The translations under genes were made by a program, and so were the position numbers. Of a DNA stretch of 32,000 nucleotides, positions 6,244-31,895 are shown one piece after another (position 1 is the first letter of the stretch; the number at the start of each line of letters is the position of its first letter). Origin of the DNA: Fastidiosibacter lacustris (GTDB taxonomy: Bacteria > Pseudomonadota > Gammaproteobacteria > Francisellales > Francisellaceae); NCBI RefSeq assembly GCF_003428155.1, contig NZ_QLIR01000001.1:224558-256557 (forward strand), written 5' to 3'. The notes below the pieces were generated by a model. The model saw only the letters and a list, made by a program, of their open reading frames with translations, did no database searches and was not told the DNA's origin.

Positions 6244-7074
6244 TTAATGATTTTCCTTAATTAAGTTCATTGCATCGACGCGATAAAACTCTTTGTTATC
6301 TATACAATAAGCACTCAACTGTCCACCCCAAACACAGCCAGTATCAAGGTTAATACATCTGGGATTATTAGTTTTACCGTTAAGTGCTGCCCAGTGACCA
6401 AAAATCAGTATATATTCACTATCGATTTTAGGGTTAGGAAAATTAAACCAAGCATCAAAACCATTTGGCTTTTGCATAAGCTCACCCTTAAAATTTAAAT
6501 CTAAGCGACCCTCAGCATTACATAAACGCATGCGAGTAAAATAATTTGCAATACAACGCCAGCGATTAATTCCTTCAAGCTCATTGTTCCACTGATTAGG
6601 TTCATTACCAAATAAGTTACTCATAAAGTGCTGAAAGCACATGTCGGTTTGTAGTACAAATTCAAGCTCTAGCGCTAAGTGTTTGGCTTTTTTCAACGAC
6701 CAGATGGGTGGAATCCCAGCATGGGTAACAATATGTTTTTTATGTGAGTATAAAAAACGTTGATGACGTAGCCATTTCATTAATTCGTCTTTGTCAGGAG
6801 CATTTAATATTTGCTGTAAAGTATCTTTTTTGCCTAGGGGTAAATAACCAAAAGCTACAGCTAGAAGGTAAAGGTCATGGTTGCCAAGTATAACTTTGGC
6901 GGATTTAGCAAAAGATTTCACAAGACGCAGCACTTCTAAAGACTTAGGACCACGATTAACTAAATCGCCAGCGAAAATCAGTTTATCTTGTTTAGGATTA
7001 AATTTAATCTTTTGCAACAGTGCACAAAGCTCATCGTAACAACCTTGAACGTCTCCAATTAGATAACTTGGCAT
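6244..7074 (-). CDS. apaH: Bis(5'-nucleosyl)-tetraphosphatase, symmetrical
   Basis: 276 aa. Metallophosphatase motifs [22 protein letters not shown] and GH. Follows rsmA. Confidence 0.9.
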
Positions 7075-23239: not shown

Positions 23240-23545
23240 TTAATGATTTTCCTCTGCCCAATGTTGATACATGTCTTTTAAAATACAGTGCACATGATCG
23301 TCATATAACGAGTAGAATATTTGCTTCCCTTGGCGTTCACCTTTGATTAAACGTTGCTCTTTTAATAAGCGTAAATGATGACTTATTAAAGGTTGTGATA
23401 AGTTAAGTATTTCTACAAATGTTTTCACAGCAGTTGGTTCTTGAGCACACATAAATAAAATGCGCATTCTATTGCCATCTCCCATTAGTTGGCAAACAGC
23501 AGAAATTTTAGTTAAAACATTATCTTTTATCGCTGACATGATCAA
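23240..23545 (-). CDS. ArsR/SmtB-family metal-responsive repressor (alpha5-site type)
   Basis: 101 aa. Winged HTH LSQPLISHHLRLLKE. The C-terminal DDHVHCILKDMYQHWAE fits the alpha5 pattern D-x-H-x10-H-x2-E of SmtB/CzrA. Lies 21 bp upstream of the ATPase. Confidence 0.85.
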   Translation of the reverse strand: MIMSAIKDNVLTKISAVCQLMGDGNRMRILFMCAQEPTAVKTFVEILNLSQPLISHHLRLLKEQRLIKGERQGKQIFYSLYDDHVHCILKDMYQHWAEENH

Positions 23546-23556
23546 TCCATTATTTT

Positions 23557-23580
23557 TTATATAAAATTTTTTTTATATAA
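23557..23580. promoter_or_regulatory. Candidate operator: perfect 10-4-10 inverted repeat TTATATAAAA-TTTT-TTTTATATAA upstream of the ArsR/SmtB gene
   Basis: The arms are exact reverse complements and lie 12-35 nt upstream of the regulator start codon. The sequence is pure A/T, so chance or a promoter -10 element cannot be excluded. Confidence 0.3.
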
Positions 23581-23741
23581 TTTAAGTTAAAAACTAGGTG
23601 ATGTAAAGAAGAGTTTAATTAAGATGACATTTGGCAGTATCGAAATTGTATTAGCAGCAATTATTTAATTATCGTTGATATGATAATTATTTTTTTTAGT
23701 GGTAAAGCTTGTTTGTTATTATGTTTAAGTATTCTTAACTA

Positions 23742-24368
23742 CTATGGTGCGTTGTTATCAGGCTTATTGTCAATTGTCACGATGTCAATCCGATTGTGAC
23801 ACAATTTAGTTAGTGTTTGGCATGTGATTTTATATTGATCAACGGCAACTTCAAAAACAGCACTAACCCTATCGCTGAAAAATTCTTTTATGGGGGTGAG
23901 TTTAAGTGTATGTAGTGCTTGTTGTATCATTGCCGTATCGTGATATTGATAGTTAATACTAAAGATTTTTGTAACGATAAGCGGAATGAGTTGTGCATGA
24001 GCAATTACTTCACTTGCCGCTTGACCATAAGCTCGTACCAAGCCCCCAACGCCTAACTTTGTGCCACCAAAAATACGACTAACAATAATAACGACATTAA
24101 ATAAAGCTTTGCCTTGAATATGATTTAAGATTGGTTTGCCAGCAGAACCAGAAGGTTCGCCATCGTCACTAAAACGAGTAAGATTATTATCCAATATCTG
24201 ATAAGCCCAACAGTGATGATTGGCATTTGGATACTGTTGTTGTGCTTGTTGTAAATAAGCCTGCAATTTATGAGTTTTGTCAAGCGGATGCAAAGAAGCG
24301 ATAAATCGCGATTTTTTAATTGGTTCAATCTCGTATTGAAAGGGTTCTGCTATGGTGGAGTAAGCCAA
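23742..24368 (-). CDS. yigZ: IMPACT/YigZ-family protein
   Basis: 208 aa. UPF0029 motifs IKKSRFIA, DDGEPSGSAGKPIL and FGGTKLGVGGLVRAY. Non-ATG start. Confidence 0.85.
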   Translation of the reverse strand: MAYSTIAEPFQYEIEPIKKSRFIASLHPLDKTHKLQAYLQQAQQQYPNANHHCWAYQILDNNLTRFSDDGEPSGSAGKPILNHIQGKALFNVVIIVSRIFGGTKLGVGGLVRAYGQAASEVIAHAQLIPLIVTKIFSINYQYHDTAMIQQALHTLKLTPIKEFFSDRVSAVFEVAVDQYKITCQTLTKLCHNRIDIVTIDNKPDNNAP

Positions 24369-24593: not shown

Positions 24594-26871
24594 ATGGAAA
24601 ATATTAGAAATTATTATGCTCACTCAGGAAACTTGATGGACAAATCAGATTGGCAGCTATTATCTGATCATTTGCAAACGGTGGCTGATATAGCTTGGCA
24701 TAATGCACGCTATACTGGTTGCGAAGGACTTGCTGCTTTGGCTGGTTTGCTCCATGACTTAGGAAAATATACCAAAGAGTTTCAAGCACGTTTGGAAGGT
24801 TCAAGCAGAAAAGTTGATCATGCAACTGCGGGAGCAAAAATTGCAGCAGAAATTTTGCCAGATAAGTTGTTGAACGGTTTCCCTTTCTTTAAGTTAATTG
24901 CCTATGCAATCGCGGGACACCATGCAGGGCTTGCTAATGGCATAGATGAGGGTGATGGTAGAAGCTGTTTAAAGGATCGCTTAAGTCAAAACTTTGGCAA
25001 AGAATTATGTGTATTGGATGAGTTAGCATGGAAAAGTGCATTGCAACTACCATCAAGAGAATCTCTTACACTAAAGATTAAACTACATCCAGATACTGAC
25101 TTTCATGGCTTTCAATATGCTTTTTTGATTCGCATGATTTTTTCTTGTTTGGTCGATGCTGATTTTATCGATACAGATAGATTTTACAAAAAACTTAAAA
25201 ATAAACCTTGGTTAAGAGGTGAATATCCACACTTAAACGAACTTAAAATTCAACTGGATGATTATTTGGTAAGAAAACAGGAGGGGTGTGAAGATACTTT
25301 TGTTAATCAATTGCGTCATGAAATTCTTTTAAACGCTAGAAAAAAAGCACAATTATCTCCAGGATTATTTAGTCTAACCGTGCCGACAGGTGGTGGTAAA
25401 ACACTGACATCGATGGCGTTTGCTTTAGACCATGCTTTGGCACATAACATGCGCCGAGTGATCTATGTTATTCCTTTTACCAGTATTATCGAACAGAATG
25501 CAAAAGTTTTTAGAGAAGTTTTTGGTGATTTGGGAGAGTCTGCCGTTTTGGAACACCATAGCAATTTTAATGATCGCACAATTACAAATGAAGAAACTCA
25601 AGATAAGCTTAAATTGGCGATGGAAAATTGGGATATGTCTGTGATAGTAACAACTGCGGTTCAATTTTTTGAATCGCTGTTTGCGGATCGTCCTTCACGC
25701 TGCCGAAAATTGCATAATATTACAGAAAGTGTGATTATCTTGGATGAAGCACAAACGCTACCACTAAAATTTTTGCGCCCTGTGATGGCGGTAATTGATG
25801 AGTTAGCTCGAAATTATCATTGTTCAGTTGTTCTTTGTACGGCAACACAACCTGCTTTATGTCAACCAGATTTTGACAAGGGATTTGTTAATGTCAGAGA
25901 AATTGCCCCTAATCCAAGTAAGTTATTTGACGATTTAAGCTTGGTTAGTATAAGCCATTTAGGTGAATTGACAGACGATGAAATTTTAGCTCGTATGATA
26001 GATAATGAGCAAATTTTAACAATCGTCAATAATCGTCGTCATGCTCAATCGTTGTTCCAATCATTGAAAGAGCGTCAAGTAGAAGGTATTTTTCATTTGA
26101 CTACACTCATGTGCGCGATACATCGCACAAAAAAGTTAGAAATCATTCGTAAAAGACTTAAAGAGAAAAAAAACCTGTCGCGTTGTCTCAAGTTCATTAA
26201 TTGAAGCAGGGGTCGATGTTGATTTTCCTTATGTAATGCGTGCTGAGGCAGGTTTAGACTCCATAGCTCAAGCTGCAGGACGCTGTAATCGTGAACGTAA
26301 AAGGGCAAAAGAAGACAGCCACGTTTGGATTTTTAAATCACCAGATTGGCAAGTTCCACCAGAGCTAAAAAGTTTAGCGGCTGGTATGCGATCAACTTTG
26401 CGTCAAAATTTTGACAATCTGCTGGGGCAGGAAGCAATTAAGACTTATTTTTCGGAAGTCTACTGGCGCAAAGGTGCTGAGTTAGATCAAAAACAGCTTT
26501 TAAAAGACTGTAGCAATCATGCAAAAAAACTGAGTTTTCCATTTCAAAATATTGCAAGAGATTTTCTTATGATTGAAAGTTGTATGCAGCCAGTATTTAT
26601 CCAGTTTGATAATGAAGCGGAGCATTTATTGAAAGAGTTGGAGGTAACGGATGATGTAAGCCGCATATTACGTAAACTACAACCTTATATAGTGCAGATT
26701 CCAAAGCAAGGGTTTGATAGTTTGGTAGCTACTAATGCCGTACAAACGGTGGCGCCTTATCGATTTCAAGAACAGTTTTGGGTACTGATCAATCGTGATA
26801 TATATGATGATGAATGTGGTATCAGTTGGGATAATCCAACTTTTATGAAGGCTGAGAGTTCCATCTTTTGA
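24594..26871 (+). pseudogene. cas3: Type I-C Cas3 (HD nuclease + SF2 helicase), split by a +1 frameshift in an A8 run
   Basis: ORF 24594-26204 carries the HD motifs (LHDLGK, DHATAGA), helicase motif I TVPTGGGKT and motif II ILDEAQ. ORF 26236-26871, whose frame is open from 26140, continues with CRVVSSSLIEAGVDVDF and motif VI QAAGRCNRE. Removing one A from 26166-26173 joins the two as ...RLKEKK-TCRVVSS.... Confidence 0.9.
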
Positions 26872-26886
26872 GAACAATCAAAAGAA
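26862..26886 (-). promoter_or_regulatory. Predicted Cascade binding site: TTC PAM plus a 22-nt partial protospacer for the mini-array pseudo-spacer
   Basis: The minus strand reads TTC|TTTTGATTGTTCTCAAAAGATG. The pseudo-spacer is TTTTGTTTGTTATCAAATGATG.... They are identical at positions 1-22 except 6, 12 and 18. The site overlaps the cas3 stop codon (26869-26871). Its PAM edge is 7 bp upstream of the -35 hexamer at 26894. Confidence 0.7.
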
Positions 26887-26893
26887 AAAATAT

Positions 26894-26922
26894 TTGACTT
26901 AACTTATGTTTGAATTTAGAAT
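26894..26922 (+). promoter_or_regulatory. Sigma70-type promoter TTGACT-17 nt-TAGAAT
   Basis: -35 TTGACT (26894-26899), an exactly 17-nt spacer, and -10 TAGAAT (26917-26922). An A-rich UP-like tract (26880-26893) lies upstream. The promoter points toward the small ORF, the mini-array and cas5. Confidence 0.55.
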
Positions 26923-26957
26923 CCTTCTTAAGGAGTTTAAGCAGCTGGAAGTGAAAC

Positions 26958-27107
26958 ATGAAAAATTGTTGGGCGATCCATATTGAAAAAAATGAGAGTG
27001 GGAAGCTGATATTAAAATTTGGTGGACAGCTGCATTTTCCAGTAAAAACTGTAGGATGGAGTTTTGCTGCACTTTTAGTTGTAGTGGTGGGAAAGTTCTT
27101 TTTTTGA
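26958..27107 (+). CDS. Hypothetical 49-aa peptide with a hydrophobic C-terminal segment (candidate small membrane toxin or leader peptide)
   Basis: ATG at 26958 is preceded by GGAAG (26946-26950). Hand translation: MKNCWAIHIEKNESGKLILKFGGQLHFPVKTVGWSFAALLVVVVGKFFF, ending at TGA 27105-27107. It is too short for the supplied ORF track. It lies between the promoter and the mini-array. No homology is claimed. Confidence 0.4.
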   Translation: MKNCWAIHIEKNESGKLILKFGGQLHFPVKTVGWSFAALLVVVVGKFFF

Positions 27108-27133
27108 ATTTTCACCTATTCATTGCGATTGTA

Positions 27134-27221
27134 GTCGCATCTCATGTGAATGCGTGGATTGAAACTTTTGTTTGTTATCAAATGATGAGATCGCACCCCA
27201 TGCGGGTGCGTGGATAAGGAG
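27134..27221 (+). CRISPR. Degenerate two-repeat type I-C mini-array (creA/CreR-like): psiR1, a 24-nt pseudo-spacer, psiR2
   Basis: psiR1 (27134-27165) is GTCGCATCTCATGTGAATGCGTGGATTGAAAC. The pseudo-spacer (27166-27189) is TTTTGTTTGTTATCAAATGATGAG. psiR2 (27190-27221) is ATCGCACCCCATGCGGGTGCGTGGATAAGGAG. Both repeats fit the known I-C pattern GTCGC-hairpin-GCGTGGATTGAAAC and are 21/32 identical to each other. Confidence 0.85.
27155..27210 (+). ncRNA. Predicted mature crRNA-like RNA: 11-nt 5' handle, 24-nt guide, 21-nt 3' hairpin
   Basis: Boundaries come from applying the known Cas5d cleavage position (3' base of the repeat stem) to psiR1 and psiR2. The handle is UGGAUUGAAAC. The 3' hairpin is CGCACCC-CAUGC-GGGUGCG. 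Prediction only, with no expression data. Confidence 0.45.
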
Positions 27222-27227
27222 GCAGAG

Positions 27228-27908
27228 ATGGCTTATGGTATTAAGCTGCATGTGTGGGGAGAGTATGCTTGTTTTACCAGACCCGAAATGAAGGTGGAGC
27301 GCGTATCTTATGATGTAATTACGCCATCTGCGGCCAGAGGGATTTTGGAGGCAATTCACTGGAAACCCGCGATTTGTTGGGTGATTGATCGCATTCATGT
27401 GTTAAAACCTGTGCGTTTTGAAACGATTAGGCGAAACGAGTTAGGGAATTGCAAAATTTCTACCTCTAAAGTCAGTGGTGCAATGAAGCGTAAAAGTACT
27501 CAAGATTTATATTTTTTGATTGATGATGGAGATAATCGTCAACAAAGAGCAACGACACTTTTGCGTGATGTTGGTTATGTGGTTGAAGCACATTTTGAGT
27601 TAACTAATAAAGTAGGTAATGAAGATTCAGTTGGCAAGCATCTTGATATATTTAATCGCAGAGCGCGCAAAGGACAATATTTTCATCAGCCTTGCTTGGG
27701 AAATCGTGAATTCCCTGCTTATTTTTCGTTGATTGAGTCGGATGAGGATTTTCCTCTTTCTGAGTTAAGTCAAGAGACTAAAGATTTAGGTTGGATGTTG
27801 CATGATATTGATTTTGCCAATGCCGCGACCCCAAAATTCTTTCGCGCCAAATTAATAAATGGAGTGATTGATGTTCCGCCTTTTAGAACTTTGGGGGTGG
27901 TGCAATGA
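27228..27908 (+). CDS. cas5: Type I-C Cas5 (Cas5d/Cas5c), Cascade subunit and pre-crRNA endonuclease
   Basis: 226 aa from the ATG at 27228, which has a strong SD AAGGAGG (27216-27222) 5 nt upstream. The N-terminus MAYGIKLHVWGEYACFTRPEMKVERVSYDVITPSAARGILEAI is the canonical Cas5d start. The stop overlaps the cas8c ATG (ATGA). Confidence 0.93.
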   Translation: MAYGIKLHVWGEYACFTRPEMKVERVSYDVITPSAARGILEAIHWKPAICWVIDRIHVLKPVRFETIRRNELGNCKISTSKVSGAMKRKSTQDLYFLIDDGDNRQQRATTLLRDVGYVVEAHFELTNKVGNEDSVGKHLDIFNRRARKGQYFHQPCLGNREFPAYFSLIESDEDFPLSELSQETKDLGWMLHDIDFANAATPKFFRAKLINGVIDVPPFRTLGVVQ

Positions 27909-29731
27909 TTCTAACCGCTTTAACCCAATATTATAATCGACTGGCGAATACGGAAAAAGGTGCAAAAGTACCTGCTTATGGATTTAGTGAAGAAAAAATC
28001 GGCTATATTTTAGTGCTGTCTGAGTCAGGGGAGTTAGTGGATGTTGTGCCTAATTTCACCGATGAAAAAAAGCCCAAAGCAAAATTAATGAGCGTACCAT
28101 GCCCAGAAAAAAGAACATCAGGTATTAAGCCTAACTTTTTGTGGGATAAAACGGCATATGTTTTAGGTGTCTCACTGCCAAAAGACAAAAAAAGTGAATC
28201 AACGTTTGAGCTATCGCTACCTAATTTCGAGGCTTTTAAGAGCTATCATCTCAAATTATTAAAAAATCAAGAAGAGAAAGGTCTAAAGGCATTGTCCAAT
28301 TTTTTACAAAATTGGCAACCAGAAGAATTTGAAAGTTCATTGTGTACACCTGAAATTTTGGATGCCAACGTGATATTTCAATTGGATGGTGTTAGGCAAT
28401 ACATTCACGAGTCCCAATTGGCTAAGGCAATTTGGGCGAATCAACTGAAATCAGATGATGCATCTGATGATGCTATGTGTCTGATAACAGGTACTCAAAC
28501 GCCTATTTCAAGATTGCACCCAGCAATTAAAGGTGTCTCTGGTGGACAAAGCTCCGGAGTGTCGATTGTTTCCTTTAATAAAGAATCATTTGAATCTTTT
28601 GGCAAGAAACAAGGTGATAATGCACCAGTTTCTGTACAAGCTGCTTTTGCCTATACGACTGCCTTAAACTACCTATTACGCGACGAAAATAATCAAGTTA
28701 TCAGCTTGGGTGATACTAGCGTTGTTTTCTGGGCATTAGCTAAAAAAGAAGAACAGGCAAAAAAAGTAGAATCTTTCTTTATGATGGGGTTTAATCCGCC
28801 ATCACCTACCGATGACAGTGAAACAGTTCAATTGAATGCTGAGTTAGAGAAGTTTACTAAAGGTCGACCCTTGGCAGAGATTGATCCTGAGCTTGATCCT
28901 GACACCCAGTTCTTTATTTTGGGATTGACGCCTAATGCAGCGCGTCTTTCGATTCGTTTTTGGTTACAAACTAGTTTTGGTCAGATTCAGCAAAGACTTG
29001 CTGAGCATTTTCAAGATTTAGCCTTAGCTCCTTTACCTTGGAAAACACCACCATCTATTTGGCGTCTTTTATTACAGCTAAGTCCTCATCGTGAAGGGCA
29101 GAAAAGTAAGATAGATGATGTCCCAGTACATTTGGCTGGAGAGTTAATGCGTTCTATTTTGACGGGGCAGCGTTATCCAAGATCTATTATTGCACAAATT
29201 TTATCTAGATTTAGAGCTGATGGAGATATTGGGGGTTTAAGAATTGCTATGGTAAAAGCTGTTTTGCAAAGAGAATTTAGGAAAAATTTGATAACAGAGG
29301 AGATCCCTATGAGTTTAGATGAGTCAAATACCAATCAAGCGTATTTGCTTGGCAGGCTTTTTGCCGTGTTAGAGAATATACAGGAAAGAGCTTTGGGTGA
29401 TAAGTTGAATGCTACGATTGCTGATAAATACTATGCTTCAGCCTCAACTGTGCCATATTCAGTTTATCCGCGATTACTATCAGGAAGCAAACATCACTTG
29501 TCTAAAGTTCGCAAAGATAAACCAAAGTTAGCAGTCTATTTGGAAAATAGGCTTGGTCAAATTATGACACAATTACCAACAGAATTCCCACGCCATTTTT
29601 CTATCGAAAATCAAGGGCGTTTTTCGATTGGCTATTATCAGCAAAAGTTCACCCCCTCTAAAGAAAAAGAAGATCCAAAAGACAAAGAAGATCCAACTAA
29701 GTCTATTGATGAAACACAAGGAGTAGAATAA
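27905..29731 (+). CDS. cas8c: Type I-C large subunit Cas8c (Csd1)
   Basis: 608 aa. Sits between cas5 and cas7. The N-terminus MILTALTQYYNRL and the C-terminal AYLLGRLFAVLE region are typical of Csd1. Confidence 0.92.
   Translation: MILTALTQYYNRLANTEKGAKVPAYGFSEEKIGYILVLSESGELVDVVPNFTDEKKPKAKLMSVPCPEKRTSGIKPNFLWDKTAYVLGVSLPKDKKSESTFELSLPNFEAFKSYHLKLLKNQEEKGLKALSNFLQNWQPEEFESSLCTPEILDANVIFQLDGVRQYIHESQLAKAIWANQLKSDDASDDAMCLITGTQTPISRLHPAIKGVSGGQSSGVSIVSFNKESFESFGKKQGDNAPVSVQAAFAYTTALNYLLRDENNQVISLGDTSVVFWALAKKEEQAKKVESFFMMGFNPPSPTDDSETVQLNAELEKFTKGRPLAEIDPELDPDTQFFILGLTPNAARLSIRFWLQTSFGQIQQRLAEHFQDLALAPLPWKTPPSIWRLLLQLSPHREGQKSKIDDVPVHLAGELMRSILTGQRYPRSIIAQILSRFRADGDIGGLRIAMVKAVLQREFRKNLITEEIPMSLDESNTNQAYLLGRLFAVLENIQERALGDKLNATIADKYYASASTVPYSVYPRLLSGSKHHLSKVRKDKPKLAVYLENRLGQIMTQLPTEFPRHFSIENQGRFSIGYYQQKFTPSKEKEDPKDKEDPTKSIDETQGVE
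29309..29731 (+). CDS. cas11c: Cas11c small subunit from an internal in-frame start within cas8c
   Basis: In-frame ATG at 29309, preceded by GAGGAG (29297-29302) with 6-nt spacing. It yields 140 aa starting MSLDESNTNQAYLLGRLFAVLE. Internal translation of Cas11 from cas8c is established for type I-C. Confidence 0.6.
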   Translation: MSLDESNTNQAYLLGRLFAVLENIQERALGDKLNATIADKYYASASTVPYSVYPRLLSGSKHHLSKVRKDKPKLAVYLENRLGQIMTQLPTEFPRHFSIENQGRFSIGYYQQKFTPSKEKEDPKDKEDPTKSIDETQGVE

Positions 29732-30601
29732 ATGACTATCCAACATCGTTATGAATTTGTTTATTTTTTTGATGTCACTAATGGTAATCCAAATGGCGAT
29801 CCTGATGCAGGAAATATGCCTCGTCTTGATCCTGAATCTAGCAAAGGATTAGTGACGGATGTCAGTTTAAAACGTAAAATCCGTAACTACATTCAGTTTA
29901 GTAATGAAAATAAGCCTGGCTATGACATTTATGTGCAAGAAAAAAGTATATTAAATCAGCAGAATCAGAAAGCTTATGATGCTTTAGAAATTAAAGCAGA
30001 ACCTAAAAAGTTACCAAAAGATCAGGAAAAAGCTAAAGCTATTACTGATTGGATGTGTGCTAATTTCTTTGACGTTCGCGCTTTTGGTGCAGTCATGACA
30101 ACGGAAGTGAATTCAGGTCAGGTGCGCGGACCATTTCAGTTAGCATTTGCAAAATCAATTGATCCAATTATTCCTTTGGAGATCTCTATTACGCGAATGG
30201 CGGTGACGAATGAGAAAGATTTAGAAAAAGAACGTACGATTGGACGCAAACATATTGTGCCTTATGGTTTATATCGTGTACATGGTTTTATTTCAGCAAA
30301 ACTAGCAGAAAAAACAGGGTTTTCTGAAAGTGATTTAAGTAAATTGTGGAAAGCCTTAGAAATGATGTTTGAACACGATCATTCTGCTGCTCGTGGTGAG
30401 ATGTCAGCACGTAAGTTGATTGTATTTAAACATCAGGATATGCTAGGGAATGCTCCAGCGTACAAGTTATTTAATCGTGTTACTGTTGAGCGTGTGAAAG
30501 GTGAATTAGGTACGCCAGCCAGTGCATTTGATGATTATGTAATTCATTTGGATACGTCAGGCTTAGAGACTTTAGGAGTTGAAGCGAGAGAGCTTTTTTA
30601 A
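29732..30601 (+). CDS. cas7: Type I-C Cas7 (Csd2) backbone subunit
   Basis: 289 aa. Contains FDVTNGNPNGDPDAGNMPR and DVRAFGAVMT, which are typical Csd2/Cas7 motifs. Confidence 0.93.
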   Translation: MTIQHRYEFVYFFDVTNGNPNGDPDAGNMPRLDPESSKGLVTDVSLKRKIRNYIQFSNENKPGYDIYVQEKSILNQQNQKAYDALEIKAEPKKLPKDQEKAKAITDWMCANFFDVRAFGAVMTTEVNSGQVRGPFQLAFAKSIDPIIPLEISITRMAVTNEKDLEKERTIGRKHIVPYGLYRVHGFISAKLAEKTGFSESDLSKLWKALEMMFEHDHSAARGEMSARKLIVFKHQDMLGNAPAYKLFNRVTVERVKGELGTPASAFDDYVIHLDTSGLETLGVEARELF

Positions 30602-30608
30602 CTGTGTT

Positions 30609-31223
30609 ATGTCGGATATATTAATCTCCCTTTCCGCCCTCCAGCACTATGCCTTTTGTCCTAGGCAATGTGCGCTTATTCACAATGAGCAAGTGTGGTC
30701 AGAGAATTGGTTGACCGCTCAAGGGCAGCAATTACATCAGCGTGTTGATAGTGGCGTGCCTGAAACACGCAAAGGGATTCGTTATGAGCGAGCTGTGCGT
30801 GTTTCAGCACCTAAACTGGGCTTAGTTGGTAAGCTTGATCTTATTGAAGTGGATATTAAAACAGGTATTTGTTTTCCAGTGGAATATAAACGTGGCAAGC
30901 CAAAACAAGATCATATCGATCTTATTCAGTTATGTGCGCAAGTATTGTGCCTTGAGGAGATGCTTAAACTGAGCATTAATCATGTTGCAATGTGGTATTG
31001 GCAGACAAAGCATCGCATTGAGGTTGTATTAACGCAAAGCTTGCGTGATGAAACGCTGACTATAATTGAAAAAACAAGGATGTTACTGGAAAGTGGGATG
31101 ACTCCTAAAGCCAAATATGAGAAAAAGTGTGATGCCTGTTCATTATACGATTTGTGTAACCCAAAACTTATGTTTAAAGACAAAAGCAAAGTATATGTGA
31201 ACATGCTTTTTCAGGAGGGATAG
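30609..31223 (+). CDS. cas4: Cas4 RecB-like exonuclease
   Basis: 204 aa from the ATG at 30609. Contains LQHYAFCPRQCAL and the C-terminal Cys cluster CDACSLYDLC (Fe-S). The DxK-type core reads VGKLDLIEV..EYKRGK. Confidence 0.9.
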   Translation: MSDILISLSALQHYAFCPRQCALIHNEQVWSENWLTAQGQQLHQRVDSGVPETRKGIRYERAVRVSAPKLGLVGKLDLIEVDIKTGICFPVEYKRGKPKQDHIDLIQLCAQVLCLEEMLKLSINHVAMWYWQTKHRIEVVLTQSLRDETLTIIEKTRMLLESGMTPKAKYEKKCDACSLYDLCNPKLMFKDKSKVYVNMLFQEG

Positions 31224-31226
31224 GCA

Positions 31227-31895
31227 TTGAAAAAATTACAAAACACACTCTATATCACCAAACAAGGCGCTTATTTGCACAAGGAACGTGAGACACTGGT
31301 CATTGAAGTTGAAAAGGAAAAAGCAATGCAGTTGCCTATTCATGCAATTCAGGCGATTTATTGCTTTGGTAATGTTATGGTATCACCTTTTTTGCTGGGA
31401 TTTTGTGGTGAGAATAATGTCCATTTGGCATTTTTTACTGAATATGGTCGTTTTCTTGGGCGTTTACATGGCACACAAAGTGGTAATATCTTGTTAAGGA
31501 AAGCACAATATAAAATTGCAGAAACTGATCCTGTACCTATTGCCAGAAATATAATTGCGGCAAAGCTTAATTCTTCACGAGCGGTATTATATCGCAGGTT
31601 ACGCAATCATGGGGAAAATAAAGCGGTTGAAAATGCAGTTGAGCAAATAAGTTATACTATCAGGCGCTTGCAAAAGACAGAAACTTTGGAGGCAAATTTA
31701 GGTTTAGAAGGTGAGGCTGCCTCCGTGTATTTTAGTGTTTTTAATGAATTGATTTTATCTGCTGTACAACCTGATTTTACTTTCGATATACGTAGTCGCA
31801 GACCTCCGTTGGATCCTGTTAATGCTATGCTATCATTTTTATATAGTGTCGTTGGAAATGATATTAGAGTTCCTTCCAAACCGTATTTAATCTAG
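31227..31895 (+). pseudogene. cas1: Cas1, 3'-truncated; native sequence ends near 31866
   Basis: TTG start after AGGAGGGA. The first ~213 aa are Cas1-like (TLYITKQGAYLHKERETLVIE, PPLDPVNAMLSFLYS). The frame then runs into unrelated sequence and stops at 222 aa, whereas I-C Cas1 proteins are typically ~340 aa. The catalytic C-terminal half is absent. Confidence 0.85.

Follow-up and report, generated by a model that had tools for sequence, protein, structure and literature searches.

We report that the interval between cas3 and cas5c of a type I-C CRISPR locus in Fastidiosibacter lacustris carries a gene for a protein of 49 amino acids (aa), MKNCWAIHIEKNESGKLILKFGGQLHFPVKTVGWSFAALLVVVVGKFFF, placed between a self-target of the locus and the degenerate mini-array that encodes the matching guide. 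The locus lies in a stretch of 32,000 nucleotides (nt), hereafter the window, whose I-C operon (24594–31895) comprises cas3, cas5c, cas8c, cas7, cas4, and cas1 as assigned by Pfam. The 356-bp intergenic stretch contains, in this order, the target, a promoter, a 49-codon open reading frame (ORF), the mini-array, and the ribosome-binding site of cas5c (Table 1). Its regulatory part is of a known kind, that of the CRISPR RNA (crRNA)-like RNAs CreA, CreR, and SRU (solitary repeat unit), and its cargo is an undescribed miniprotein family. On balance we think it probable that the whole forms a unit autoregulated by Cascade, in which the miniprotein is a cargo that serves as a guard. More tentatively, we propose that the I-C loci of many Proteobacteria harbor unrecognized Cascade-gated miniproteins of ~50 aa with a C-terminal membrane helix, which belong to at least two unrelated families and are encoded by the first cistron of a self-repressed transcript for guide and Cascade. 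They would constitute a fourth kind of CRISPR-repressed toxin, devoid of a sensor, through which the loss or inhibition of Cascade would lead to growth arrest or abortive infection.

Conservation of the 49-aa ORF as a protein gene

Homologues of the miniprotein were searched for by tblastn in 80 Cas5c-anchored loci from GTDB species representatives (loci are referred to below by L numbers). A homologue was detected in Vibrio metschnikovii at the same position upstream of cas5c (44% identity, E 1e-10), and further ones at this position in a Nitrosomonadales metagenome-assembled genome (MAG) and a Methylotenera MAG. Inspection by eye added matches in an Oleiphilus MAG and another gammaproteobacterial MAG. 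An initial annotation of the window had suggested this search and had named absence of the peptide from related loci as grounds for giving up its proposal; the peptide turned out to be present in them, at the corresponding place.

When the window peptide alone was compared by phmmer with 1.84 billion representative proteins, three proteins of 46–52 aa were retrieved (E 5e-7 to 6e-4). Six long proteins (568–2785 aa) in the same list were taken as spurious, since they matched via short hydrophobic stretches. A word-indexed protein search with the peptide alone returned nothing, and the exhaustive phmmer comparison was needed. A profile built from 12 members and run against 5.8 billion proteins retrieved 13 clusters of 46–65 aa (E 8e-17 to 2e-8), which contain no Pfam domain and for which the only source name is 'hypothetical protein'. 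A metagenome scan with the five closest sequences added a single locus, whose miniprotein is identical to that of L084 and L085. We designate these proteins family A. Every readable family-A neighborhood is the cas3-ORF-cas5c segment of an I-C locus (at least 16 loci from several orders). Phage and plasmid records, searched by tblastn, contained no significant match to the miniprotein. Exact look-ups found no called gene for the 49-aa product, nor for the window Cas5c with its ATG start; the locus was retrieved by way of its Cas7.

The pattern of conservation is that of a translated sequence. In 12 loci the frame of the ORF is the only one open across the region, the other five frames being closed. 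Two antisense ORFs of the window (26843–27115 and 26899–27072, minus strand) were rejected because they are closed in relatives. A properly spaced Shine-Dalgarno sequence precedes each family-A member examined. Among four related pairs, substitutions at the first, second, and third codon positions number 8, 4, and 12; 10, 4, and 13; 0, 0, and 4; and 23, 11, and 31, so that the third position is favored and the second avoided. The amino-acid sequence is kept across orders, whereas the DNA is not alignable (56–60% nucleotide identity). From these comparisons of sequences, the ORF is almost certainly a genuine protein gene specific to I-C loci.

The guide and its target

The mini-array consists of a degenerate repeat (PsiR1), a 24-nt spacer-like guide (PsiS), and a second repeat (PsiR2) whose 3′ part has diverged (Table 1). 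The true repeat of F. lacustris was taken from L081 (GCA_024208055.1), a second assembly with 99.87% identity to the window over 8.1 kb, in which the downstream CRISPR array is visible (repeat GTCGCACCCCGCATGGGTGCGTGGATTGAAAC, spacers of 34–35 nt). The 3′ end of PsiR1, GTGGATTGAAAC, is the same as that of the true repeat, so that PsiR1 has the handle nucleotides by which crRNA-like RNAs are recognized. PsiR2 keeps the canonical 7-bp hairpin, with a folding energy of −12.8 kcal/mol compared with −12.5 kcal/mol for the true repeat. RNA folding of 27100–27240 revealed nothing beyond the repeat hairpins (z-score −0.59), and the sole Rfam match was a weak, sub-threshold one of PsiR1 to CRISPR-DR9. 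PsiS (25 nt when A27190 is included) is ~10 nt shorter than the real spacers. This difference suggests a safeguard against cleavage.

PsiS matches a site at the end of cas3 that is flanked by the consensus I-C protospacer adjacent motif (PAM), TTC. A repeat finder reported the arms 26862–26884 and 27165–27187 as complementary at 20 of 23 positions. In the PAM register, the mismatches over 22 nt are confined to positions 6, 12, and 18 of the spacer. In type I Cascade every sixth nucleotide is flipped out and hence unpaired. Since the mismatches coincide with the positions that Cascade leaves unpaired, all 19 pairing positions over the 22 nt are matched. The locus thus contains its own PAM-flanked, partially complementary site, as do those of the crRNA-like RNAs CreA, CreR, and SRU. 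The 32-kb window contains no second target of PsiS, whether at the cas3 promoter or elsewhere; apart from the target, the search reported just the junction of PsiR1 and PsiS itself.

The same arrangement was found in all 16 family-A loci, in each of which the target is on the minus strand with a TTC PAM facing the promoter. The seed matches at 9–10 of 10 positions, and the mismatches concentrate at positions 6 and 12. PsiS varies from 21 to 34 nt in length and the guides vary by lineage, giving at least nine distinct guide/target pairs. Since the guides differ between lineages yet stay paired with their targets, complementarity has been kept through covariation. These pairs bear out the earlier interpretation of the mini-array, the TTC-flanked target, and the promoter as a module for Cascade-guided repression. 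Viral contigs were also scanned for phage sequences mimicking the guide (handle plus seed), and none was found.

Promoter and proposed transcription unit

A predicted sigma-70-type promoter begins directly downstream of the target. The gap between PAM and −35 hexamer is 7 bp (26887–26893), that is, the hexamer begins 8 nt after the PAM, and the transcription start site (TSS) predicted from the position of the −10 hexamer is at 26929–26931, ~43–45 bp from the PAM. The promoter, its 7-bp spacing from the PAM, the A-rich tract, the Shine-Dalgarno sequence, and the ORF were all located where the initial annotation had placed them. A promoter scan found two sites where 2.9 were expected. Because the consensus match by itself is not beyond chance, the support for the promoter is comparative. 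TTGACA is present 8–9 nt past the PAM in L001 and likewise in L083 and L084 (read by eye). In L003, L020, L025, L031, and L051 the best-scoring −35 hexamer lies within the PAM-proximal part of the protospacer, L061 and L075 are similar, and L088 has the same layout.

Between 26500 and 27400 no terminator-like site was detected, and the single other promoter-like match is weak and lies inside the mini-array (27159–27186, TTGAAA-16-AATGAT, 9/12), where it is built from the handle of PsiR1 together with PsiS. Should this site be active, cas5c would have a basal level of transcription independent of Cascade; inspection of relatives by eye did not reveal it there.

The ORF stop codon is 26 nt from PsiR1 in the window, and this distance is smaller, or the two overlap, in relatives. 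Across loci the handle motif, which is 22 nt into the repeat, starts 16–48 nt past the stop codon, so that PsiR1 overlaps the end of the ORF in some of them. This packing appears too tight for separate promoters, suggesting that the ORF, the guide, and cas5c-cas8c-cas7 are carried on a single transcript. For the same reason, the two models put forward in the initial annotation, an addiction module and a homeostatic loop in which Cascade represses its own operon, do not exclude each other, as had been said there. Between cas3 and cas5c there is no other strong promoter-like site. If the genes are co-transcribed, the target would therefore lie at the promoter driving the effector cas genes, as for CreR.

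The position of the ORF as the first on the transcript, with its stop codon just ahead of PsiR1 in the window and nearer to or overlapping it in other loci, would also suit a cis-acting leader peptide whose translation, rather than its product, tunes how the guide and cas5c downstream are transcribed or processed. A regulated leader had been suggested earlier; one that acts purely in cis is very improbable. Amino acids are conserved across orders where the DNA is not alignable, substitutions are biased to the third position, and a hydrophobic C-terminus is conserved, which indicates selection on the amino-acid sequence. Neither the terminator scan of 26500–27400 nor folding of 27100–27240 revealed an attenuator or a terminator. 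Still less credible is that the AT-rich spacer contains the ORF and the promoter by chance and that the mini-array alone matters. The G+C content of the window is 37%, 9.5% of the shuffled spacer sequences contain a promoter match of at least 10/12, and the 49-aa product is recorded neither by NCBI nor by other gene callers. Nevertheless, significant homologues occur at this position only, the openness in 12 loci is specific to one frame, and the Shine-Dalgarno sites are conserved.

A caution in the initial annotation concerned the position of the target, which is upstream of the −35 hexamer and not over the core promoter, so that the strength of repression was uncertain. In I-C loci of Neisseria, where the −35 hexamer adjoins the target and the TSS is 37–46 bp downstream, promoter-reporter fusions were repressed 4.8- to 60-fold in Escherichia coli with Cascade, and compensatory mutations confirmed the mechanism at the Nezha promoter (Shu et al., bioRxiv 10.1101/2024.12.27.630466). 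Since the same geometry proved repressive there, this caveat is answered. The predicted distance of the TSS from the PAM in the window (~43–45 bp) compares with the 37–46 bp from the target in Neisseria.

These fusions also bear on the possibility, likewise raised earlier, that Cascade at 26862–26886 acts mainly as a roadblock to read-through from cas3 and leaves the downstream promoter largely unaffected, which would be compatible with a Cascade-autoregulated unit carrying a guard. The target is outside the core promoter and overlaps the 3′ end of cas3, no terminator follows cas3, and in loci without the module cas5c begins 9–60 bp after cas3 and is presumably co-transcribed with it. However, the repression in the fusions was obtained without upstream transcription (bioRxiv 10.1101/2024.12.27.630466), and the −35 hexamer inside the protospacer in L025, L031, L088, and others makes promoter occlusion the conserved theme. 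A role mainly as a roadblock is accordingly improbable. Considering the covariation and the experimental precedent in the same subtype, it is very likely that a complex of guide and Cascade represses this promoter.

The cas3-cas5c interval in other I-C loci

This interval is a hotspot for inserts. Measured between the stop codon of cas3 and the start codon of cas5c, it divides the 80 loci into three classes: ~10–125 bp without an insert, ~255–390 bp (356 bp in the window), and >1 kb. The gap is below 125 bp in ~35 of the 80 loci. The class of >1 kb carries large cargo and consists mostly of Neisseria and Pasteurellaceae. In the class of ~255–390 bp, eight loci encode a family-A protein and six encode a protein of a second family, B. 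In total, 14 of the 80 closest Cas5c loci carry a miniprotein, and families A and B together comprise ~20 protein clusters. The distribution of the module among close Cas5c relatives is patchy, as expected of accessory or selfish cargo.

Family B (46–56 aa, with a C-terminal membrane segment, for example MEREPESSNHLEIDLRLKVSSKWRLRSLVWWVVATLGSFFLILIGK) occurs in Thauera/Azoarcus-type and other I-C loci (L019, L022, L024, L035, L061, L075, and L093–L098), each of which has its own TTC-PAM target and guide. The stop codon of the family-B gene falls inside PsiR1, and the database relatives are likewise located between cas3 and cas5c. A single family comprising A and B was rejected, as hhalign gave a probability of 0.8% for their relationship. 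L035, L061, and L075 possibly form a separate group.

Other contents were seen in this interval. The class of ~255–390 bp also includes loci with an ORF of ~110 aa, and loci with a guide and a plus-strand target but without an obvious ORF. In L016 (6660–7004), L067 (6657–7004), and L072 (2897–3229), and similarly in L052, an ORF of ~110 aa overlaps the cas3 stop codon; its N-terminal 'YxITYPNGKIYIGK' is GIY-YIG-like by eye, it has no Pfam match, and no clear mini-array was found with it. A Glaesserella MAG (L064, 6543–6806) and Neisseria weixii (L074, 6634–6870) carry a DUF2188 protein of ~80 aa in the slot (Pfam E 1e-21), and L064 has a guide with a TTC-PAM target 13 bp past cas3. The DUF2188 protein may be another small supervised cargo. 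In L043, L065, L069, and L071 a plus-strand target lies 8–17 bp past the cas3 stop codon, with its PAM distal to a downstream TTGAC-type promoter, and no obvious small ORF stands beside the mini-array; these loci may represent CreR in pure form, the orientation of the target being reversed.

Nature of the miniprotein

The sequence of the miniprotein is polar at the N-terminus and hydrophobic at the C-terminus. The hydrophobic C-terminus that had been noticed at first is present, but its length of ~19 residues was an overestimate: hydropathy analysis gave 15 uncharged residues (31–45) followed by KFFF. Among 14 family-A members, 13 have an N-terminal part with a net charge of +1 to +6 and 13 have a C-terminal uncharged run of 14–25 residues. 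AlphaFold2, supplied with an alignment of 14 sequences, predicted strands at residues 7–11 and 17–21 (predicted local distance difference test score, pLDDT, 54–61) and a helix at residues 29–48 (pLDDT ~85). Taken together, these features and the conservation of the family suggest a tail-anchored membrane protein with a cytoplasmic N-terminus.

No known family accounts for the miniprotein. Searches with the 14 members gave no Pfam match at E values up to 1 and none in PADLOC. NCBIfam and PHROGs returned insignificant matches only (lambda holin, E 0.14, and holin/anti-holin, E 0.14, respectively). Pfam includes models for the type I toxin-antitoxin (TA) toxins Hok, Ldr, TisB, Fst, and Ibs. The miniprotein matched none of these, the Hok/Gef model included, nor a holin model significantly.

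That the miniprotein is a dose-dependent toxin or an abortive-infection effector is the weakest step of the proposal, and we give it a little less than an even chance. It is plausible in view of the membrane helix, the absence of a sensor domain, the patchy distribution, the replacement by an unrelated protein of the same shape, and the precedent of the CRISIS elements (CRISPR-supervised immune systems), which are known from I-C loci mainly of Neisseria. Cargoes of these elements impaired the growth of E. coli when overexpressed from strong inducible promoters, and in three tested systems (Nezha, Wukong, and Shaseng) transformants were lost in a cargo-dependent manner upon inhibition of Cascade by AcrIC9 (bioRxiv 10.1101/2024.12.27.630466). 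A further precedent for the proposed unit is CreP, a protein toxin of I-F loci that is repressed by Cascade.

Several observations weigh against a guard toxin in a Cascade-autoregulated unit. A toxin that shares the promoter of Cascade must be tolerated at steady-state expression. Conservation in the alignment is strongest in the polar N-terminal motif (W5, K11, F21, G23) and the hydrophobic C-terminus is variable, a pattern that would suit a specific interaction with another protein no less than generic damage to the membrane. The N-terminal hairpin itself was modeled with low confidence (pLDDT 54–61), and the membrane segment of the window protein is short, with K46 following the 15 uncharged residues. 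There is no similarity to known toxin families in Pfam, PADLOC, PHROGs, or NCBIfam, and the promoter match alone lies within chance, 10/12 or better being reached in 9.5% of the spacer shuffles. In an Alteromonadaceae MAG (L002) whose Cas5c is 82% identical, only the end of PsiS and a PsiR2-like hairpin follow cas3 (6926–7000). It looks as if a single deletion had removed the promoter, the ORF, PsiR1, the guide seed, and the target, and this loss implies that the module is dispensable. Finally, with a single-nucleotide polymorphism (SNP) that breaks the PsiR1 stem and a frameshifted cas3, the copy in the window may be partly decayed.

Some of these points favor a different role, namely a CreR-type homeostatic autorepressor in which the miniprotein is a non-toxic accessory, such as a membrane-anchored adaptor or regulator whose conserved, cytosolic N-terminal hairpin would act on a membrane complex of the host or on a Cas protein. 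As a presumed part of the Cascade transcript, the ORF must be tolerated whenever Cascade is made; its N-terminal motif is better conserved than its membrane segment, and the gene is confined to I-C loci. Many bacterial membrane proteins of 40–60 aa, among them AcrZ, MgrB, and MgtS, are regulators rather than toxins and share this size class. On the other hand, an unrelated family of the same shape replaces family A elsewhere, which is more typical of interchangeable effectors or toxins than of a partner dedicated to Cas proteins. Most I-C loci do without a miniprotein, as seen from the gap below 125 bp in ~35 of the 80, and every experimentally characterized cargo in the slot is a defense or toxic system. 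We consider a non-toxic accessory unlikely, though clearly less so than a roadblock or a leader peptide.

Proposed circuit and comparison with known systems

In the proposed Cascade-autoregulated circuit, the promoter would drive one transcript comprising the miniprotein gene, PsiR1-PsiS-PsiR2, and cas5c-cas8c-cas7. Cas5c would cut both repeat-like hairpins to release a guide of ~56 nt, in which PsiS (24 nt) is flanked by a 5′ handle of 11 nt and a 3′ handle of 21 nt, and its canonical cleavage past the PsiR2 hairpin (between 27210 and 27211) would give the cas5c mRNA a leader of 17 nt. Cascade loaded with the guide would occupy the TTC-flanked site at 26862–26886, directly upstream of the −35 hexamer, and block RNA polymerase; the short guide would most likely avert self-cleavage mediated by Cas3. 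Miniprotein, guide, and Cascade would be held at a low set point, and their level would rise upon loss of Cascade or upon its inhibition, as by an anti-CRISPR. The miniprotein would be the cargo of the circuit, most likely harmful at high dose and gated by transcription alone, and would act as a guard like CreP or the CRISIS cargoes, arresting or killing cells whose Cascade is disabled.

We infer repression and guide processing by analogy with the Neisseria systems. There, two-repeat units give rise to 57-nt RNAs with 11-nt 5′ and 21-nt 3′ handles, the targets of the crRNA-like RNAs have a reported TTC PAM, and the PAM of CRISIS elements is TTC or TTA (bioRxiv 10.1101/2024.12.27.630466). A 57-nt RNA with such handles leaves a spacer of ~25 nt, which is in line with the 24-nt PsiS. 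The likeness extends to subtype and slot, since CRISIS elements also consist of cas3, a TTC-PAM target and promoter, cargo, a solitary repeat unit, and cas5c; in the window, cas3 (stop codon at 26871) is followed by the non-cas ORF at 26958–27107, the repeat unit at 27134–27221, and cas5c at 27228. Shared features are also the −35 hexamer beside the target, the tolerated mismatches at positions 6 and 12, and the expected derepression of the cargo upon inhibition of Cascade. In contrast to CRISIS, the cargo here is one 49-aa protein with a single C-terminal membrane helix in an insert of 356 bp. It is unrelated to any of the ten described CRISIS cargoes (Nezha, Gabija, sole-Sir2, Wukong, Erlang, Tianpeng, Shaseng, Longwang, Guanyin, and Tudigong), of which Longwang has two membrane helices and a long helix (bioRxiv 10.1101/2024.12.27.630466). 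The hosts are Thiotrichales, Vibrio, Methylophilaceae, and others instead of Neisseria.

CreR is likewise a degenerate mini-CRISPR within a cas locus, with a guide partly matching the promoter of the effector cas genes, and is autorepressive (bioRxiv 10.1101/2023.03.10.532045; PMC10120712). I-C examples of CreR were noted bioinformatically, with mini-arrays in 7% of I-C loci (bioRxiv 10.1101/2023.03.10.532045; PMC10120712), whereas experimental validation covers I-B, I-E, and V-A only (bioRxiv 10.1101/2023.03.10.532045). By definition, CreR has no toxin or cargo, and here a conserved protein gene is the first cistron, so that the element is not a CreR in the strict sense.

CrePA of the Acinetobacter I-F system resembles the present module in having a small protein gene in the spacer between cas3 and the Cascade genes, whose promoter is targeted by the neighboring CreA, and it was proposed as a guard against anti-CRISPRs (bioRxiv 10.1101/2024.01.05.574328). 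Both rely on a PAM and extended partial complementarity (19 nt in CrePA, 22 nt here). However, CreP is a soluble KilAC-domain protein of 103 aa that is of phage origin and blocks cell division. The miniprotein, in contrast, has 49 aa, is predicted to be membrane-anchored, contains no KilAC or other Pfam domain, and yielded no phage homologue in our searches; subtype and PAM differ as well.

CreTA modules (I-B in haloarchaea; I-F in Acinetobacter and Pseudomonas) share with the proposed circuit the repression of a harmful neighbor by guide and Cascade, so that loss of the Cascade genes is not easily tolerated. The toxicity of CreT, a small RNA, depends on a start codon with tandem rare Arg/Ile codons or proline codons behind it and not on a protein product. 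The ORF contains no tandem AGA, AGG, AUA, or proline codons, P28 being its sole proline, and is conserved at the protein level; the label 'CreT-like' used in the initial annotation therefore does not hold in the strict sense.

Type I TA toxins (Hok, TisB, Fst, Ldr, and Ibs) are proteins of ~20–60 aa with one membrane helix and no sensor domain, and their activity is set by the expression level. The miniprotein resembles them in its short length and single membrane helix. It differs in that there is no sequence similarity, that the membrane segment is C-terminal, behind a conserved basic domain resembling a β-hairpin, and that control would be exerted by CRISPR interference at the DNA level instead of by antisense RNA.

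In a preprint of June 2026, the recognized CRISPR-repressed toxins fall into three classes only, namely RNAs that sequester tRNA, the KilAC protein CreP, and RNAs with proline codons, and no I-C membrane miniprotein is listed. Full-text literature searches found no description of the 49-aa ORF; the strain lists in the supplement of Shu et al. lay outside their coverage, and a prior mention there is possible.

The control of cas genes and guard toxins by crRNA-like RNAs is a young field, in which only large defense cargoes, from Neisseria, have so far been described for type I-C. The present comparison indicates that the slot is widely filled by tiny genes, which annotation often misses or calls hypothetical. 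If toxic, the miniproteins would be the smallest protein effectors yet linked to CRISPR supervision, and the module a compact part of ~350 bp that couples Cascade activity to cell fate and could be used in screens for I-C anti-CRISPRs or for stabilizing I-C tools. If not toxic, they would represent a new accessory protein specific to I-C.

State of the window copy and neighboring genes

The features of the module and the adjoining cas genes are listed in Table 1. The Cas8c and Cas7 proteins of the window are identical to NCBI proteins of F. lacustris.

Table 1. Coordinates of the module and flanking cas genes in the window
Feature	Position	Strand	Basis
Protospacer-like target of the locus's own crRNA-like RNA, overlapping the cas3 stop codon (26869–26871)	26862..26883	−	PsiS match
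PAM, gaa on the plus strand (5′-TTC-3′ on the protospacer strand), type I-C consensus	26884..26886	−	Sequence
A-rich tract between target seed/PAM and −35, possible UP element (putative role)	26880..26893	+	Sequence
Sigma-70-type promoter TTGACT-17-TAGAAT (−35, 26894–26899; −10, 26917–26922)	26894..26922	+	10/12 consensus match
Shine-Dalgarno sequence GGAAG, 6 nt before the ATG of the small ORF	26947..26951	+	Sequence; GAGGAG, AGGAG, or GGGAG in relatives at the same spacing
Small ORF, 49 aa, family A	26958..27107	+	Homologues, open frame, codon-position bias
PsiR1, degenerate repeat GTCGCATCTCATGTGAATGCGTGGATTGAAAC; last 11 nt, would-be 5′ handle	27134..27165	+	Comparison with the true repeat of L081
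PsiS, spacer-like guide TTTTGTTTGTTATCAAATGATGAG, 24 nt	27166..27189	+	Target match
PsiR2 ATCGCACCCCATGCGGGTGCGTGGATAAGGAG; 3′ part diverged into the cas5c Shine-Dalgarno sequence AAGGAGG (27216–27222)	27190..27221	+	Hairpin, sequence
cas3, HD nuclease and helicase	24594..26871	+	Pfam HD, DEAD, ResIII
cas5c, Cascade subunit and pre-crRNA endonuclease	27228..27908	+	Pfam Cas_Cas5d, E 4.5e-49
cas8c (Csd1)	27905..29731	+	Pfam Cas_Csd1, E 2.9e-190; identical to WP_116963181.1
cas7 (Csd2)	29732..30601	+	Pfam Cas_Cas7, E 1.8e-106; identical to WP_116963182.1

The window differs from L081 at 11 positions, three of which affect the system. First, cas3 of the window is split by a +1 frameshift in a run of eight A residues (26166–26173) into ORFs 24594–26204 and 26236–26871, whereas L081 has seven A residues and an intact Cas3 of 758 aa. 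The change in the A-run could be a sequencing error; alternatively, cas3 may truly be inactivated or subject to phase variation, with the Cascade genes still intact. If real, cas3 is decaying next to intact Cascade genes, a pattern that a Cascade-guarding module would permit; this is a consistency, not evidence. Conversely, a guard toxin, if that is what the miniprotein is, would explain why Cascade genes persist despite the decay of cas3, as in the window. Second, A27149 (G in L081) breaks a pair in the PsiR1 hairpin, which is weakened and loses its canonical fold. Third, C26862 (T in L081) extends the pairing of guide and target to position 22. These two are the ones, among ten SNPs relative to L081 and L082, that sit in the regulatory RNA system.

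Rearranged surroundings were noticed in some loci that carry a miniprotein gene. In L086 and L087 (7671–8130) and L088 (7856–8165), cas4, cas1, and cas2 are absent after cas7 and TA genes (HicA; DUF433/DUF5615) are present instead. In L097 a DDE transposase (28–1380) takes the place of cas3, and the miniprotein gene and the Cascade genes are retained.

Upstream of cas3, the window carries an ArsR-family helix-turn-helix gene and an Impact_N/UPF0029 gene (23240–24368, minus strand), and in Thiomicrospira (L083, 632–1624) a WYL-domain regulator lies directly ahead of cas3. The ArsR-family gene in the window, or the WYL-domain gene in L083, could encode an additional transcriptional regulator of the locus.

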